DNA of 54,445 nt from Bacteroidota bacterium (lineage in GTDB: Bacteria; Bacteroidota; Bacteroidia; Bacteroidales; VadinHA17). Under the pieces are notes generated by a model. That model ran no database searches, was not told the origin of the DNA, and saw nothing but the letters and a program-made list of their open reading frames with translations. The translations under genes and the position numbers were made by a program. Location: NCBI GenBank assembly GCA_030618105.1, contig JAUXED010000003.1:1-54445 (forward strand). Direction: 5' to 3'. Positions 47 through 48,869 of the stretch are shown one piece after another (within the stretch, counting starts at the first letter, position 1; each line of letters opens with the position of its first letter).

Positions 47-2539
47 ATGCCAGAAAGAGAAAGAATTGTAAAGATAAATATTGAAGAGGAAATGAAATCG
101 GCATATATCGACTATTCGATGTCGGTTATTGTTTCCAGAGCATTACCGGATGTTCGTGATGGGCTGAAACCTGTACACAGGCGTGTATTGTTCGGTATGT
201 CAGAGATTGGACTTTATTCAAATCGACCTTATAAGAAATCTGCAAGGATAGTGGGGGAGGTTTTGGGTAAATATCATCCACATGGCGACTCGTCTGTTTA
301 TGAAGCAATGGTAAGAATGGCACAACCGTGGTCATTACGTTATCCTCTTGTAAATGGTCAGGGTAACTTCGGCTCTGTTGACGGGGATAGTCCTGCTGCT
401 ATGCGTTATACTGAAGCCCGGCTTCAAAGAATTGCTGAAGAAATCCTGAGGGATCTTGATAAAAACACTGTTGATTTCCAATTGAATTTTGATGACACCC
501 TTGAAGAACCCACAGTACTTCCTACACGCATACCTAACTTATTAATTAATGGTGCATCAGGGATTGCTGTAGGAATGGCGACAAATATACCACCTCACAA
601 TCTTTCAGAAGTGATTGACGCAACAATTGCATATATCGATAATAATGAAATTGAGGTTGATGATTTGATGGAGTATATTAAAGGACCTGATTTTCCTACC
701 GGCGGCATCATCTACGGGGTGCAGGGTATAAAAGAAGCATTTTTAACAGGGAGAGGAAGACTGGTGGTAAGGGCCAGGACTGAAATTGAAACTACTCCTT
801 CAGGAAGAGAACGGATAGTGGTATCAGAGATACCCTATATGGTGAATAAAGCAGATATGATCAAAAAGACGGCTGACCTGATCAATGAAAAGAAAATTGA
901 GGGTATATCTTATATCAACGATGAGTCGGACCGCGAGGGAATGCGGATAGTTATTATCCTTAAAAGAGATGCTACATCAAATGTCGTACTGAATAAATTA
1001 TTCAAATATACCCAGTTACAGAACTCATTTAACGTAAATAACATTGCTCTTGTAAATGGTCGGCCAAGATCATTGACATTAAAGCAGATGATATCTTATT
1101 TTGTTAAACACCGCCACCAGGTTGTTATAAGGCGTATCAAATATGAACTTGAACAGGCAAAGAAAAGGGCTCATATCCTTGAGGGATTGCTGATTGCACT
1201 TGACAATCTTGACGATGTTATCAAACTGATAAGAAAATCGAAAACCCCCGATGAGGCAAAAACAGGTCTTATAAAGAATTTTGAACTGACAGAAATTCAG
1301 GCTAAAGCAATACTGGATATGAGACTACACCGCCTTACCGGTCTCGAAAGAGATAAGATAAGGGAGGAGTATAAAAACCTGATGAATTTGATAGAGCATC
1401 TGAATGACATATTATCAGATGAAAGTCTTCAGATGAAAATTATCAGGGATGAACTTTTTGAGATAAAAGAGAAATTTGGCGATGAACGCAGAACTGAGAT
1501 TGTGCCTAATGTTGAGGAGTTTGATCCTGAAGATTTTTATGCTGATGAAGATATGGTTATTACCATTTCCAGGCTTGGCTATATTAAACGTACGCCACTG
1601 GCTGAGTTCAGACGGCAGGGGAGAGGTGGTATCGGTTCAAAGGGAGGAACAACACGCGATGAGGATTTCCTTGAACATTTATATATTGCCTCTATGCATA
1701 ATACTATGCTGTTTTTTACAAAAAACGGTAAATGCTATTGGCTCAAAGTATACCAGATCCCCGAAGGGTCGAGAATATCTAAAGGCCGGGCAATACAGAA
1801 TATTCTAAATATTGAACCAAATGATTTTGTCAGGGCTTATATTAACGTGCAAAAGCTTGATGACGAAGAATATATCAACAACAATTTTATAATCCTTGGC
1901 ACCAGAAAGGGTGTAATAAAGAAAACAACACTTGAAGCATATTCCCGTCCGCGACAAAACGGTATAAATGCAATTAATATCAGGGAAGGAGATGAGTTAC
2001 TTGAAGCTAAACTTACCAATGGGAATCATGAGATTATGATGGCAGTCAGGTCAGGCAGGGCTATCAGGTTCCATGAAAGCAAGGTCAGGCCTATGGGAAG
2101 AACCGCTTCCGGTGTAAGAGGTATTACGCTTGGCTCCGGTAACGATGAAGTGATTGGAATGGTCGCTGTTGAGGAAGAGAAGGAAGACATACTGGTGGTT
2201 GCTGAAAAAGGTTACGGAAAACGCTCAAAGATAGGCGGTTACAGAATCACTAACCGTGGTGGAAAGGGTGTTAAAACCCTGAATATCACTGAGAAAACAG
2301 GAGCATTAATTGCTATGAAGGGGGTGCTTGATACTGATGACCTGATGATAATAAACCGCTCGGGACTTACAATCAGGGTTGCTGTTTCGGAGTTAAGAGT
2401 TATGGGCCGTACAACCCAGGGTGTCAGGTTAATAAACCTCAAAGAGGATGATTCGATCGCTGCCGTAGCCTATGTTAAGGTCAACGATGAAGATGAGCCG
2501 GAAAATGATTCTGAATCTTCTGAAAAAGAGGAGAAATAG
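47..2539 (+). CDS. gyrA: DNA gyrase subunit A
   Basis: 830-aa ORF. Has the [10 protein letters not shown] and GKYHPHGD motifs, the catalytic-Tyr region [11 protein letters not shown]-terminal beta-pinwheel repeats and an acidic tail. Confidence 0.98.
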
Positions 2540-40571: not shown

Positions 40572-41321
40572 ATGAATAATTTCCTTAATAGACATATTTA
40601 CGGAATTTTAGGAACAATAATAGTTCATCTTGTTATTGGTATCATATTTATGATAATAAAATTGTCAGTATCATACAGGGATACAGGAAAATATGTATGG
40701 ATTGAATTCGAGTCGCCGCGTGAGGAAAAAGTATTACAGATACAGGAACAAAAAGAAGAAGTGCAGGGCTATGATGAAGAGGAATACTGGACAACAATAG
40801 CAGCAAATTTGTCAAATGAGCCGGAAGAAGAATTTGATATTGAAAAATATATGGATAAGATAAAGGAGGAATTGATTGAAAGTGGAGATATTACGAAAGA
40901 AGACAATTATATTGATGACAGGAAACAGGTTGAAAAAGCACTCCAGGCGGGGATTACAAGTTTTATTGAAGATAAAAGAACTGAAGAAATAAAGAATGAA
41001 GTTGAAAAAACCTCTGCAGAAATTGCCGCCCAATACCGTGGTCCAACACGGATATATTACGAACTGGCAGGGCGGGTGCACAAAAATCTTCCCCTTCCAA
41101 TATATCTGTGCGAAGGTGCCGGAAAAGTTGTAGTGGATATTGAAGTTGACAGGAAAGGTTCAGTTGTGACTTCAGCTATTAATGAAAGCGAAACTGCTAT
41201 AGTTAATGAATGTTTGTACCAGGCAGCAAAAAAGGCTGCTTCACTTTCTGTTTTTAACACTGACTATTTAGCACCGAACAGGCAATCCGGAAAAATCACT
41301 TACCATTTTGCAGCACAATAG
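40572..41321 (+). CDS. TonB-C-terminal-like membrane-anchored protein
   Basis: 249 aa. N-terminal TM segment, acidic linker, and a C-terminal domain with GKVVVDIEVDRKGSV that resembles the TonB_C fold. Confidence 0.5.
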   Translation: MNNFLNRHIYGILGTIIVHLVIGIIFMIIKLSVSYRDTGKYVWIEFESPREEKVLQIQEQKEEVQGYDEEEYWTTIAANLSNEPEEEFDIEKYMDKIKEELIESGDITKEDNYIDDRKQVEKALQAGITSFIEDKRTEEIKNEVEKTSAEIAAQYRGPTRIYYELAGRVHKNLPLPIYLCEGAGKVVVDIEVDRKGSVVTSAINESETAIVNECLYQAAKKAASLSVFNTDYLAPNRQSGKITYHFAAQ

Positions 41322-41711: not shown

Positions 41712-42488
41712 TCAGTCAGCCCAGAATTTATCTTTCAAAGAATTGGCAACAGGCTTAAGATAAGAAGGTATAACACTATACAACTTATTGAAATCAGGCA
41801 AAACATCTTTATTGGTAGAAAGATCTGTAACGTCTTCAGGTGGAGGAGGAATATGACACTGACCAATAAACGGTAATAATGCCCAGGGATCTGTATTTTC
41901 CTTAAATTGTGAAACTAATTCAAGGGCTATTATATTATAAATGACAGGATTCCTATAATCTTTAGAACTACGAATTTTTCGAACTTCTTCTTTGATCCAG
42001 GCATTTGAGACCTGATTTTGAACCAGATCAACTTTTTCAACAATTTCTCTTAATTTATCATTTTTAAGATTACCGAAATGTTTATAATATCCTTCATACT
42101 TTTTATCCGGAGCATTGAATTCCCATTGCTCACCAAGCAGATCAAGAAAATAGAAAGAGGTGGTATGGCATATTATTTCTGATAACCAGCTTATGGCTCT
42201 TGGGTCACAGTATATATGACAAAGTTCATGCGCAAACTGATAAGTTGCTTTTCCAAAAGTATCAAACTCAGTTTGCAAACCAATTTTGTATTTATCTGTT
42301 TCAAGAGGTATATAAAGTCTGTGATCATAATACATGTCATGTACCAGATAAATAGGTTTATACCCAAGTGGTGGCCCCGTTGGTATTAACCTTTCAAATT
42401 CACTGGCAATTTGATCAATAGCCAGTGCAATGGTCTTATTATATTCATTATTGTCCCAAAGATTGTAATGTATTTCCCAGTTCATATT
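41712..42488 (-). CDS. Hypothetical HExxH-motif protein (putative metallopeptidase-like)
   Basis: About 258 aa from MNWEIHYNLW. Contains QFAHELCHIY (HExxH). The ORF-track extension to 42638 runs through a terminator hairpin and is rejected. Confidence 0.6.
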   Translation of the reverse strand, partial: NMNWEIHYNLWDNNEYNKTIALAIDQIASEFERLIPTGPPLGYKPIYLVHDMYYDHRLYIPLETDKYKIGLQTEFDTFGKATYQFAHELCHIYCDPRAISWLSEIICHTTSFYFLDLLGEQWEFNAPDKKYEGYYKHFGNLKNDKLREIVEKVDLVQNQVSNAWIKEEVRKIRSSKDYRNPVIYNIIALELVSQFKENTDPWALLPFIGQCHIPPPPEDVTDLSTNKDVLPDFNKLYSVIPSYLKPVANSLKDKFWAD

Positions 42489-42590: not shown

Positions 42591-42633
42591 AAAAACACAA
42601 ATGGGAACATCTTCGTTTGAAGAATGTTCCCAT
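42591..42633 (-). terminator. Intrinsic terminator of the ncRNA candidate
   Basis: atgggaacat/atgttcccat 10-bp stem, extended by cttc/gaag after a 1-nt bulge, with a 4-nt loop. Followed on the minus strand by ttgtgttttt. Confidence 0.7.
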
Positions 42634-43090
42634 TTCACTTTTTGATTCCCGTAGGTTTCGCAAGTGCCAAGCTACGGTTATTATGGTTTTTGTCTGTCCA
42701 ACTTGCTCCTTTCAGTTCAAGTCTTTTTTACATCTGAACCGGTCATTGGTCCCCTCCGAAGAGTTTCGCATCCACCAGTTCTGGCTTTTTAAAGGTCCCT
42801 TTAAAACCTGGTTCTTTCGAACCCGACTCTGAAGAGTTTAACCTGTACCTGATCGCCTCCTAAGAGTTGATCTTTCCAGGTCCACCTTTTTAGGTCACTT
42901 TCGGGAGAGCTTCACAAACCGTTTTCCAGATCAAGTATTTTGCGGTTTTACCCGTTTCGTACTCTTGCTTTCTTCAAGCTGATCCGGTTGGCCTGGTTAC
43001 CTTTCCCTGAGTGGGCTCTGCTACCGATTAGCCTAAGCTTCTCTTTCACAGATCCAAACCTTTCAAGCCTACCTTTTATCTCTAACTTGG
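42591..43090 (-). ncRNA. Candidate ~500-nt structured non-coding RNA (family unknown)
   Basis: ORF-free, and by eye more G+C-rich than its flanks. Bounded by a Bacteroidota-type promoter and an intrinsic terminator. Many local helices with GNRA/UUCG-type loops (see findings). No RNase P, tmRNA or SRP signature recognised. Confidence 0.55.
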
Positions 43091-43095
43091 TAGAT

Positions 43096-43126
43096 CAAAT
43101 ATAGAAATTTGCATCTTTCCTTCCAA
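43096..43126 (-). promoter_or_regulatory. Bacteroidota-type promoter (-33 TTG / -7 TAnnTTTG)
   Basis: On the minus strand: TTG (43126-43124), a 20-nt spacer, then TATATTTG (43103-43096). Confidence 0.55.
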
Positions 43127-43346
43127 TTCTTTTATTGAAATACAATAAACAAAGAATTAACAACAGTTGTTAACAATTGTTAATAACACATTTTACTTAT
43201 TTTATGCAGTTGTGTTTGCATCTTAAAAGTTGTATAATGAGATAAATATAGAGTATTTAAGGACTGGTGACATAAGATAATCTCATCAAAATATTTGCGA
43301 ATAATAAATTTTAATATATATCTTTACCCGCTTAAAAAAAAAATCA

Positions 43347-44861
<1,515 letters not shown>

Positions 44862-44898
44862 CTACACTTTTAAATACACAATAATTTAAAGGAACTCT

Positions 44899-45402
44899 AT
44901 GGAAATTATTGTAAACAAGAAGAATAAAGAAGTTAAGATACTTGAACGACAAGCAAATAATTTGTTAGTGATTGTTGATAATAAAAAGTATCATGTTGAT
45001 GTTAAAAAGATAGATAAGGATACTTATTCTTTATTATACAAAGGAAAATCGTACGATCTGAAGGTTGTATCTGAATATGATAAGAGAAAGTATTCTGTTA
45101 AACATCAGTTCAACCATTACGAGGTTGAAATTATGGATTCTGTAGCCCGTTACAGAAAAAACAGAGGGAATAATGATATTGAAGAAGATCAAAGTTCTAT
45201 CTCCTCTCCTATGCCGGGCAAAGTTGTGAAAATTCCTATTGAGGTTGGTGATAACGTCGAGTCAGGGCAAACGCTCATAATAATCTCGGCAATGAAAATG
45301 GAAAGTGAATATAAGGCAAAGAAAAACGGAAAAGTAAAAGAAATACTTACAACAGAAGGCGCTATAATTGAAGGTAACCAGTCTTTAATCCTTCTTGAAT
45401 AA
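44899..45402 (+). CDS. Biotin carboxyl carrier (biotinyl-domain) protein
   Basis: 167 aa. C-terminal biotinyl domain with SPMPGKV and the AMKME biotinylation motif. Confidence 0.85.
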   Translation: MEIIVNKKNKEVKILERQANNLLVIVDNKKYHVDVKKIDKDTYSLLYKGKSYDLKVVSEYDKRKYSVKHQFNHYEVEIMDSVARYRKNRGNNDIEEDQSSISSPMPGKVVKIPIEVGDNVESGQTLIIISAMKMESEYKAKKNGKVKEILTTEGAIIEGNQSLILLE

Positions 45403-45521
45403 CCTGTTGTCCTGATTTGATAAAATTTTCTTTATTTTTTGTTTCTTTATTTGCCGGGCAATTGCCCTTATAGAATTTTTAATTTTATTCTTTAACATAT
45501 ATACAGTAAAATTTTCCCACT

Positions 45522-47057
45522 ATGTCAACACACGAGGAGAAATATAAGGAATTTGAAAAAAGAAAAAATGCTGCGGAACTGGGAGGAGGCATTGAAAGAA
45601 TTGAAAAGCAACATAAAATTGGAAAGAAAACTGCAAGAGAAAGAATCGATATTTTGCTCGATCCGGGCACTTTCACCGAAACAGACCGGATGGTAATACA
45701 TCGTACCAGAGATTTCGATATGGATAAAAAAAAGATTCCTGGTGATGGTATAGTAACAGGGTATGGAAAAATTGATGGCAGGTTGGTTTATGTTTTTGCC
45801 CAGGATTTTACTGTATTTGGAGGAACTCTTTCAAGGACAAATGCTGATAAAGTTGTGAAACTTATGGATCTTGCCTTAAAAATGGGAGCTCCGGTGATAG
45901 GTCTTAATGATTCAGGTGGTGCCAGAATTCAGGAAGGTGTTCAGAGTTTAGGAGGATATGCTGATATTTTCTATCGTAATGTGATCAGTTCAGGTGTTAT
46001 ACCACAGATATCTGCTATAATGGGGCCATGTGCCGGTGGGGCTGTCTACTCTCCTGCCCTTACAGATTTCATATTTATGGTTAGAAAAACAAGTTACATG
46101 TTCGTTACCGGACCTGATGTTATAAAAACTGTTACTCATGAGGAGGTTACAAAGAATGAACTGGGTGGAGCAATGACTCATAATTCAAAAAGCGGAGTTG
46201 CACATTTTATTGCTGATGATGATGAACAGGTTCTGATGATGATAAGAGAATTGATTGGATTTATACCGTCAAATAATATGGAGGATCCGCCAGAAAAGAA
46301 ATGTACTGACGATATTAAACGGGAAGATGAATTTCTTCAAAAACTTGTCCCTGTAGATCCTAATAAACCTTATGATATGAAAGAGCTTATCACTACAATT
46401 GCAGATGATAAGGATTTTTTAGAAGTCATGCCTCTTTATGCACAAAATATTATTACGGGGTTCGTCAGGCTTAATGGTAAGCCGGTAGGAATAGTTGCTA
46501 ATCAACCATCTGTACAGGCAGGTGTACTGGATATTAACGCCTCAACAAAAGGAGCACGCTTTGTAAGATTTTGTGATGCATTCAATATCCCTCTGGTAAC
46601 TTTTGAGGATGTTCCTGGTTTCCTGCCCGGGACAACACAAGAATTTGGAGGGATTATTCGCAATGGGGCAAAGTTGATATATGCTTTTTCAGAGGCAACT
46701 GTACCTAAGGTTACATTAATTACAAGAAAAGCATATGGAGGTGCGTATTGTGTAATGTCAAGCAAACACCTTGGAGCAGATGTAAACTATGCTTATCCAA
46801 TGGCAGAAATTGCTGTAATGGGTCCTGATGGAGCTGTAAATGTTTTATTTCGTAATAAATTGGATGCCGAAAAATCTGATCTTGTAGATGAATACAAGGC
46901 AAACTTTGCTAATCCATATAAAGCAGCTGAACTTGGATATCTGGATGAAATTATATACCCGAAACAAACCAGATTTAAGCTAATTCAGGCTCTCGAAATG
47001 GCTGCAAATAAAGTAAAATCAAATCCTCCGAAAAAACATGGTAATATCCCCCTGTAA
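45522..47057 (+). CDS. Acyl-CoA carboxylase carboxyltransferase (PccB/methylmalonyl-CoA carboxyltransferase-like)
   Basis: 511 aa. Typical carboxyl_trans family blocks ([46 protein letters not shown]). Confidence 0.9.
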
Positions 47058-47441: not shown

Positions 47442-48869
47442 ATGGTTGGTTATTTATTTCGAAGATTTTTTTTCCTTCTGGTAATCGTTATAACATATAC
47501 ACCTGTTATTGCTCAGGTTCAGGACAGCATAATAAGTTCACGGAAGGATATGAATGTTGACGAGTTAAATAAAAAACTTCTGGATGCTGCTTACGTGGGA
47601 AATGATGCTAGTGTATTAAAATTTTTGGAAGCAGGAGCTGATCCGAATACTTCAATGTGGAATGGAATTACCCCACTTATGTTTGCTGCTGATAATGGAT
47701 TCCTGAAAACAGCTAAAATCCTTGTTTTGAATGGAGCTGATGTAAATAAAAAGCCCGAAAACCAGGTTTCAGCTTTGGTTAATGCTGCTTTTAATAATAA
47801 CATGGACATTGCAGAATTATTAATAAGACATGAAGCAGATATTAATGATACGGATAGTTATGGAATCTCTTCTTTGATATATGCAGCTGCTTATAATTAT
47901 TACGTCTTATGCGATATGCTATTGTATTATGAAATAAATATCGAAATACAGGATAAAGATGGAACAAATGCTGTAATGGCAGCTACTGTTGTTGGTAATT
48001 ATGATATAGTAAAACTACTCCTTGATAACGGGGCTCAGGTAAACAATACTGATCATGAGGGGTACACAGCACTGATGATGGCAGCTCAGAATGGTGATAC
48101 CAGCATGATTAATCTTTTTCTCAATCACCATGCTGAACCGGATCACGTAAATAAATATGGATTATCTGCTTTACATGTTGCTATAAAAAACGGACATCTG
48201 GAGGCAGTCAGGATATTGGTGAACTATGGTGCAGAGATTTTACTACATGATAACACAAGATATACACCATATGTACTTGCTAAAAAATCCGGTAACAGGG
48301 AAATGAAAAAATATTTATCATCCCTGAAAGTTAAGAAAACATTCAAGCCAACCATCGACAGGTTATTTCTATCTCCCTGTTTTAAACTAAATACCGGTGA
48401 TTTGTTTTTTGGAAGTGAGATAGGTATTATTGATGAAAATCTGGAAATCGGTTTACAATTTGGCTATTTTTCCCGCACTTTTCCAAAACGAATTCTTATT
48501 AAATCAGACGAAAACATTTCTTTTCAGTATTGGGAGAACAGGACAAACCTTGAATTTGGAATTAATAAATATCTGCATCTTTCAAATCTTGCTTCAGGAG
48601 CATCTGTTGATGTTTATGCATTTAGCAAATTTGTTTATTCATTTGGCGGAAAATATCCGGGATCAGATCAAAAGGCAAAGTCTGTTACAAAAGTTGTTCC
48701 CGGTTTTGGAATTTGCTGGGGTCAGAAGTTATTTAAATTTAATTTGGGTTATGAATATTTTAATACTGGTATTGAACCAGCAAAGAAGCATTGGATAAAC
48801 CTTGGGGTTTCTGTGAACTTATATTTACATAAAAAAGAACTTCGGGATAAAGTAATTGAATGGTATTGA
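47442..48869 (+). CDS. Exported ankyrin-repeat protein with C-terminal beta-rich (barrel-like) domain
   Basis: 475 aa with a signal peptide. At least six ANK repeats (G.TPLMFAA..G....A..L...GADVN pattern). The last ~170 aa show alternating hydrophobic beta-strand patterns and end in an aromatic residue. Confidence 0.8.
   Translation: MVGYLFRRFFFLLVIVITYTPVIAQVQDSIISSRKDMNVDELNKKLLDAAYVGNDASVLKFLEAGADPNTSMWNGITPLMFAADNGFLKTAKILVLNGADVNKKPENQVSALVNAAFNNNMDIAELLIRHEADINDTDSYGISSLIYAAAYNYYVLCDMLLYYEINIEIQDKDGTNAVMAATVVGNYDIVKLLLDNGAQVNNTDHEGYTALMMAAQNGDTSMINLFLNHHAEPDHVNKYGLSALHVAIKNGHLEAVRILVNYGAEILLHDNTRYTPYVLAKKSGNREMKKYLSSLKVKKTFKPTIDRLFLSPCFKLNTGDLFFGSEIGIIDENLEIGLQFGYFSRTFPKRILIKSDENISFQYWENRTNLEFGINKYLHLSNLASGASVDVYAFSKFVYSFGGKYPGSDQKAKSVTKVVPGFGICWGQKLFKFNLGYEYFNTGIEPAKKHWINLGVSVNLYLHKKELRDKVIEWY

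Follow-up and report, generated by a model that had tools for sequence, protein, structure and literature searches.

Complex conserved RNAs of more than 350 nt are rare in bacteria, and those that have come to light in the past have been ribozymes, scaffolds of ribonucleoproteins (RNPs), guide RNAs and, most recently, RNA-only cages. Bacteroidota is a phylum with few large structured RNAs. The subject here is a candidate for that short list: an RNA of about 500 nt on the minus strand, at 42591-43095 of a 54,445-nt stretch of a Bacteroidales genome (assembly GCA_030618105.1, contig JAUXED010000003.1), the whole of which is referred to below as the window. The first-pass annotation had proposed a self-contained, structured transcript of this length and of no known class, and what can be read from the DNA bears this out in the form of a predicted promoter, a predicted terminator, covariation of paired positions and no match to Rfam. 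As argued below, the locus is probably (at about 0.7) the gene for a stand-alone, trans-acting, highly structured non-coding RNA (ncRNA) of a previously undescribed family. A full-text literature search found no prior description of it.

The raiA motif RNA, of unknown biochemical function, is ~200 nt long and is found in Firmicutes and Actinobacteria. The RNA of the window would resemble it in being a bacterial ncRNA that stands alone, with a promoter and a terminator of its own, a conserved multi-helix fold and a habitual neighbourhood, and in not being a leader. The raiA motif RNA is found in over 2700 species (PMC12968392). In contrast, the RNA of the window is 2-2.5 times larger, comes from a narrow Bacteroidales group and has no sequence or model similarity to raiA RNA. 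OLE is a Firmicutes RNA that is linked to oap genes, and the cages made by ROOL and GOLLD RNAs assemble through kissing loops. The likeness to all three lies in the length (more than 350 nt), the many GNRA-capped helices, the long-range pairings and a periphery that varies around a conserved core. ROOL and GOLLD are often associated with phages or tRNAs and form homo-oligomeric cages (bioRxiv 10.1101/2024.12.08.627333). The RNA of the window, in contrast, is chromosomal, is present once per locus and is absent from viral contigs, and it gives no covariance-model match to OLE, ROOL or GOLLD. HEARO, the omega RNA of IscB, is defined by its adjacent IscB (HNH/RuvC) open reading frame (ORF) and by mobility; the RNA of the window falls in its size range and has its ornate look, but has no adjacent IscB, no mobile context and no model match. 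The resemblance to GOLLD, ROOL and HEARO that was remarked on at first pass thus holds for size and ornateness and does not extend to a match with any of their models. Type A RNase P RNA offers a further parallel: paired ends, the most conserved nucleotides in junction strands near the closure, and expendable peripheral helices. Helix order and number nevertheless differ, and the CR-I (GGAAAGUCCGG) and CR-V (ACAGAANCCGGCUUA) motifs of the P4 pseudoknot are absent from the RNA of the window, which no RNase P model of Rfam matches. This resemblance is architectural only.

The RNA occupies part of an 860-bp gap between accC (43347-44861, plus strand) and the gene for a 257-aa protein with an HExxH motif (41712-42485, minus strand), in which there are only short ORFs. 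(An RNA position p corresponds to window coordinate 43096-p, and the start would lie at ~43091-43095.) An nhmmer profile of the RNA matches the window once, at 43094-42592 (E 1e-122). The unit stands out in composition, as had been judged by eye, with a G+C content of 43.5-45% against 25-33% in its flanks, and its minus strand is rich in purines. The minimum free energy (MFE) of the RNA is -159.9 kcal/mol (z = -5.66), a value that none of 100 dinucleotide shuffles matches, and the unconstrained fold is as stable as the fold that is forced to hold the comparative helices described below. The positions assigned at first pass to the promoter, the terminator, the local helices and the repeated modules all checked out on the minus-strand text.

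The putative promoter has the Bacteroidetes form. Its -33 element, TTG (43124-43126, minus strand), is separated by a 20-nt spacer from a -7 element, TATATTTG (43096-43103, minus strand), that fits the consensus TAnnTTTG. Both had been pointed out beforehand, and both recur across the homologues: TAnnTTTG lies at a fixed distance from the conserved 5' end in 23 of 23 listed loci and also in L083, L084, L088, L090 and L092, and the -33 element, which reads TTTGG in most homologues, forms part of a conserved AAAA..TTTGG block ~20 nt upstream of the -7 box. At the other end, the proposed terminator hairpin (42601-42633 in the first reading) is present as a bulged hairpin of 16 bp at 42599-42635, followed by a U-tract at 42591-42598, UUUGUGUUUUU; together (42591-42635, minus strand) they look like an intrinsic terminator, which folds at -20.9 kcal/mol. 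In RNA numbering the hairpin spans 461-497. The terminator helix (helix 15) covaries, with seven of its 12 pairs changed on both sides, its UGUUUU is invariant in 25 of 25 sequences, and a hairpin with a U-tract ends every homologue whose 3' end is intact. A simple terminator scan of the window did not call this hairpin, probably on account of the bulged U. In the metagenome contig of locus L078 (~1070-1160, plus strand) an unrelated G+C-rich stretch takes the place of the terminator hairpin ahead of the 257-aa gene, which could reflect either a chimeric assembly or a genuine insertion.

Homologues were sought along three routes. The first started from the downstream 257-aa protein, of which 43 relatives were aligned and 58 genome loci fetched. 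nhmmer placed the RNA directly upstream of the gene in only nine of these loci, in which the gene product is at least 48% identical and the gene is accC-adjacent; further lookups added L061 and L064/L065, with 257-aa genes at 44-46% identity. At the ~45 other loci only 220 bp separate the gene from asnS, which leaves no room for the RNA, and nhmmer finds no match. The second route took no account of gene context: metagenome contigs were scanned with a 22-nt degenerate motif taken from the 5' junction of the RNA. It returned 17 loci: ten with the full RNA, every one of them adjoining accC and two of them (L076 and L079) lacking the 257-aa gene, and seven chance matches, about the number that the information content of the motif leads one to expect. 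The third route, outward through relatives of accC and their contigs, added L083, L084/85, L088, L090 and L092. In all there are 25 distinct sequences of 329-539 nt, from metagenome-assembled genomes (MAGs) and metagenomes, which represent a handful of deep lineages and are 48-58% identical between clades; TAnnTTTG precedes every one of them. L083 is a complete 2.9-Mb MAG genome (CP070687.1). The RNA was not found in phage and plasmid collections by BLASTN or in viral contigs by two motif scans.

The case for a conserved fold rests on compensatory change. RNAalifold on ten sequences gives 93 pairs, 34 of them with compensatory changes. A model of 83 pairs was then scored on an alignment of 20 distinct sequences (A3) made with MAFFT, which is blind to structure, against column shuffles and against slid controls, in which each 3' partner is shifted by 1-3 columns so that the relatedness of the sequences is kept. 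Standard pairs fill 93.4% of cells, compared with 84.6±0.4% in column shuffles (0 of 500 reach the observed value) and 32-54% in slid controls. Thirty-five pairs are changed on both sides, compared with 22.5±2.5 in column shuffles (again 0 of 500) and 9-17 in slid controls, and the cells changed on both sides number 130, compared with 41 and 19-38, respectively. P1, P2 and P12, as named below, hold in the wider set of 25 sequences. A lack of covariation among homologues had been put forward as the result that would count against a structured RNA; strong covariation is what was found, which points to selection on the fold. Invariant G-U and U-G pairs in P7, taken together with the promoter and the terminator, specify the minus strand of the window as the RNA strand.

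In the architecture that emerges, the 5' end is held against the 3' region by P1 and P2, the hairpins P4-P8 lie within P3, P9 and P10 come next and P12 stacks beside the terminator; GNRA or UNCG tetraloops cap most of the stems. (Window coordinates in what follows are all on the minus strand.) The 5' strand of P1, CCAAG (43086-43090), pairs with 42667-42671 (RNA 6-10/425-429) in 21-25 of 25 sequences, depending on the position, and has undergone independent compensatory changes in three lineages: to CCGAG/CUCGG in L064, UCAAG/CUUGA in L088 and GCAGU/ACUGC in L092. The single strand J1/2 follows, UUAGAGAUAAAA at 43074-43085 (family consensus UGAGNGAUAAAR), in which AG, GA and AAA are invariant in 25 of 25. 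P2 joins GGU (43071-43073) to 42685-42687 (RNA 23-25/409-411); all three positions are paired in every one of the 25 sequences, even as one pair is U-A in 12 and C-G in 13 and the middle pair is G-C, G-U or A-U. On the 3' side, the junction hexamer AAUAAC (42677-42682), between P2 and P1, is likewise invariant in 25 of 25. Outside the terminator region these are the only invariants: AG.GA.AAA in J1/2 and AAUAAC in the strand across from it. A K-turn in the P1/P2 junction was considered and dropped: judged by eye, the non-bulged strand is without the required GA.

P3, with its 5' strand GGCUUGAAAGGU at 43058-43069 and its 3' partner at 42783-42796 (RNA 27-38/300-313), comprises helices 3 and 4 (100% and 90% paired, respectively), and in L084 there are further replacements, by A-U and C-G. 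Of the enclosed elements, the P4 hairpin domain (43013-43057; RNA 41-82) contains helix 5, both pairs of which are changed on both sides, and its apical loop is UUAG, GCAA or UUCG, according to the clade. The P5 hairpin, ACCU-AAAA-AGGU (42884-42895; RNA 201-212), is helix 6, and P6, GAUC..CUC-UUAG-GAG..GAUC (42851-42872; RNA 224-245), is helix 7, with five of seven pairs changed on both sides. P7/P8, CUCUU..GUC-(GGUUC-GAAA-GAACC)-GGU..AAGGG (42797-42836; RNA 260-299), is helix 8: 15 pairs, six of them changed on both sides, 95% paired. The GGUUC-GAAA-GAACC hairpin (42810-42823) that had been singled out in the first reading is sound, as the interior of P7/P8. An 8-9 bp helix that had been proposed next to it, UUUUAAAGG/CCUUUAAAA (42787-42806), can form in the sequence of the window, but the covarying partners of its strands are instead CUCUU (in P7) and AAAGGU (in P3), so that P3 and P7 replace it. 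Three AACUCUU..GAG modules had also been listed, and all three are in place; the middle one, CUCUUCAGAG, does not survive as a hairpin, its strands being taken up by P7 and P3.

Between P4 and P5 lies a variable peripheral domain closed by CACU/AGUG (42896-43012; RNA 84-200). It holds the 8-bp helix CCGGAUCA (42980-42987)/UGAUCUGG (42926-42933) with its nested hairpins, which are there as first described, though covariation lends them no support; their structure rests mainly on the energy model, and the single both-sides change in the domain comes from the poorly aligned row of L092. The domain is missing from a clade with a 387-nt RNA, and other clades have ~50-nt hairpins in its place.

In the 3' part, the P9 domain (GAACUGGU/ACCGGUUC enclosing CUC-UUCG-GAG; 42736-42781; RNA 315-360) comprises helices 9-11, with nine of 11 pairs changed on both sides. 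The P10 domain (UGU/ACA enclosing CUUG..CU-GAAA-GG..CAAG; 42695-42732; RNA 364-401) is predicted from the MFE fold; its loop is GAAA or UUCG and its stem sequence is clade-specific, and MAFFT misaligns it, so that only two pairs are counted there. P12, CACUU (42662-42666) with AAGUG (42636-42640; RNA 430-434/456-460), is helix 14, 99% paired, and covaries, with C-G replaced by A-U and U-A by C-G. The CCGUAG/CUACGG pairing noted beforehand (42672-42677 with 42649-42654, spanning 42649-42677) can be drawn, and would be a pseudoknot, P11 (helix 13), with the 3' half of P1 and the 5' half of P12 in its loop; it is 95% paired in A3, with one pair changed on both sides, which falls short of covariation support.

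The absence of a credible ORF, also claimed at the outset, holds up across the family. An intact ORF at homologous loci was looked for and not found: the longest ORFs of the 21 RNA sequences examined share no common strand, frame or length, the 71-aa plus-strand ORF of the window is shortened to 39 aa in L004 and absent elsewhere, and clade-to-clade differences in length are not multiples of three. As for known RNAs, cmscan of the whole window with 4227 families (Rfam 15), SRP, 6S and riboswitches among them, gives no match at gathering thresholds; when the filters are relaxed and E values of up to 10 admitted, the matches that overlap the RNA score 10-22 bits, against gathering thresholds of 40-186. 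Nine homologous loci from all clades yield nothing consistent. GOLLD, ROOL, HEARO, raiA, OLE, RNase P, tmRNA and introns, the families for which a check had been suggested, match neither the window nor these homologues. In one clade only, L071 (51-165, minus strand) matches the c-di-GMP-I-UAU model with 22 bits (gathering threshold 65.9, E 0.66), which was treated as noise. What is expected generically of an independent ncRNA gene (its own promoter, an intrinsic terminator, no ORF and a conserved structure) is thus what the DNA appears to offer.

Around the invariant junction, peripheral domains are swapped, expanded or deleted from clade to clade. The best reading is that the junction tying both ends of the RNA together is the conserved core of the family, and an invariant junction with a dispensable periphery places function in the folded core rather than in the linear pairing of its sequence with a target. 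The RNA would then act in trans through its folded shape, and not by antisense pairing or as the leader of an mRNA; the conserved P1/P2 junction would bind a protein or a small ligand, or might possibly be catalytic.

Several considerations weigh against this. All of the homologues come from one part of the uncultured Bacteroidales, with accC products 63-95% identical, and L086 and L091, in which accC is equally similar, have no RNA within 4 and 10 kb, respectively. The start site and the ends of the transcript are predicted. The variable peripheral domain differs too little among the five copies of the window clade for covariation to support its helices. In the set of 25 sequences, two positions of P11 carry A·G and A·C mismatches, and in L088 a local hairpin takes its place. 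In most loci the terminator is followed, 105-275 nt further on, by a gene on the same strand, which may be regulated by read-through. L088 and L090 were found by way of accC, so that further copies may exist elsewhere in those genomes, and within a shared clade the linkage to the acc genes may be inherited gene order rather than function.

The alternative that survives best, although it is unlikely, is that the RNA is a leader that regulates in cis, as a giant riboswitch or attenuator in which the binding of a ligand or protein sets termination against read-through into the downstream gene on the same strand. Terminating riboswitches and leaders are always in the 5' leader of the gene or genes that they regulate, and in most loci the RNA does lie directly upstream of an ORF in the same orientation; in the window the terminator is only 105 nt from the ATG of the HExxH gene, and inspection of the sequence of this 105-nt spacer turned up no exact TAnnTTTG box. 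The reading fails, however, on the gene to be regulated, which varies (the HExxH gene, a beta-lactamase-family gene, others) or is absent: in L079 and L090 a convergent gene follows the terminator and there is no same-strand gene downstream. A leader of the HExxH gene in particular was rejected, there being loci with the RNA and without the gene as well as loci with the gene and without the RNA. The suggestion that homologues might stay beside that gene is contradicted by seven loci that lack it (L076, L079, L083, L084, L088, L090 and L092), and the ~45 asnS-linked relatives of the gene (220 nt from asnS) do without the RNA. Inspection showed no upstream stretch that could pair with the 5' half of the terminator, and P12 borders on the terminator but shares no nucleotides with it, so that no switch is apparent. 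At about 390-540 nt the RNA also far exceeds any aptamer known to us.

Far less probable is a diverged version of a known housekeeping or mobile RNA (RNase P RNA, tmRNA, the remnant of a group I or II intron, an IscB or TnpB guide RNA) that covariance models have missed. The helix that closes the 5' and 3' ends is superficially RNase P-like, AUAAUAACCGUAGCUUGG is somewhat like ACAGAACCCGGCUUA, and some clades contain GAAAGUCC. Against this stand the searches of Rfam at E up to 10, on the window and nine loci, the absence of GAAAGUCC from the clade of the window and the failure of ARAGORN to find any tRNA or tmRNA gene in the window. The RNA is not inserted in a gene, is present in one copy per locus and is missing from the viral, phage and plasmid collections, and no IscB, TnpB, nuclease, transposase, reverse-transcriptase or intron-ORF neighbour was seen among its neighbours, which are accC, the 257-aa HExxH protein, the beta-lactamase-family gene and SRAP. 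One of the chance matches of the motif scan, at L081 (12669-13270, plus strand), coincides with the 5' end of a canonical RNase P RNA (GGAAAGTCCGGGCTC ... ACAGAACCCGGCTTA), the P1 strand of which, GGCAGGCTTGAG, happens to equal the P2/P3 strand of the RNA; this true RNase P RNA served as the reference for what the CR-I and CR-V motifs look like. A relationship to RNase P, which L081 and the presence of GAAAGUCC in some clades had brought up, was set aside, since the motifs do not occur throughout the family and no model matches.

A decayed protein-coding gene or neutral spacer, with apparent structure arising from base composition and sequence relatedness, is effectively refuted: the complementary (plus) strand folds well too (z = -4.67) and related sequences can beat column shuffles without any structure, but slid controls that keep the relatedness give 9-17 compensatory pairs against 35, the compensatory events are independent in several lineages, insertions and deletions have lengths that are not divisible by three, the longest ORFs agree in neither strand nor frame, and promoter and terminator are still conserved where overall identity falls to 48%.

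To return to the stand-alone, trans-acting RNA, its only constant neighbour is the accC-accB-carboxyltransferase operon, which in the window (43347-47057, plus strand) consists of accC at 43347-44861, the biotin carrier gene at 44899-45402 and the carboxyltransferase gene at 45522-47057. Every copy found lies within 2 kb of the operon, in one of three arrangements: the RNA is divergent from accC, or it follows the last gene of the operon in convergent orientation, or it lies one gene further away. L092, in which accC is 66% identical, is syntenic with the window. In the rearranged L090 the RNA lies just after the carboxyltransferase gene and is convergent with the operon; in L088, also rearranged, a 329-nt version follows the operon and a beta-lactamase-family gene. 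In L083 and L084/85 a beta-lactamase-family gene and SRAP lie downstream of the RNA. That the RNA stays within 2 kb of the operon through three rearrangements is what suggests that its partner or role may connect to the operon, the weakest step in the mechanism proposed here. A real functional link to the operon is doubtful at present. Equally speculative is a larger claim, that this is a new class of large RNA of ribozyme-grade complexity that is coupled to the acyl-CoA carboxylase operon, or else an RNP or RNA-only assembly of a kind new to Bacteroidota; in one example of such coupling the invariant P1/P2 junction would sense or modulate carboxylase, biotin or acyl-CoA status.

The RNA adds a well-supported family of large RNAs from Bacteroidota, of which the 329-nt and 387-nt versions present a clear minimal core that is suited to structural and biochemical work. 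Its unusual and persistent association with the acyl-CoA carboxylase operon provides a concrete, testable hypothesis, and large RNA classes that are invisible to Rfam-based annotation are evidently still hidden in uncultured sediment lineages.

Between the RNA promoter and the start of accC in the window there is an AT-rich spacer of 220 nt (43127-43346; 25-28% G+C). The accC promoter must also sit in this spacer, so that the RNA and accC would be divergently transcribed from a shared region.

The 257-aa protein encoded downstream has no match in Pfam, NCBIfam, PADLOC or PDB sequences. Its AlphaFold model is confident (pLDDT 92.6), and Foldseek finds a weak likeness to the catalytic domain of M1/gluzincin peptidases (E at least 0.1, TMq 0.43-0.49). 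Only the subfamily next to accC and the RNA retains HExxH; the asnS-linked subfamily, in which that position reads QExxR, is probably not a metallopeptidase, to judge by that motif. A gene convergent to the 257-aa gene in the window (40572-41321, plus strand) encodes 249 aa and has a weak TonB C-terminal-like match. The convergent ORF that directly abuts the RNA terminator in L079 (1676-2425) is equally long (249 aa; the two sequences were not compared), which suggests that the 257-aa gene has been cleanly lost from this locus or is absent from it. On the far side of the acc operon, the window encodes a 475-aa ankyrin-repeat protein (47442-48869, plus strand), a kind of protein that is unusual for bacteria, and the same position is occupied in the same way in L001 and in the distant, syntenic L092.

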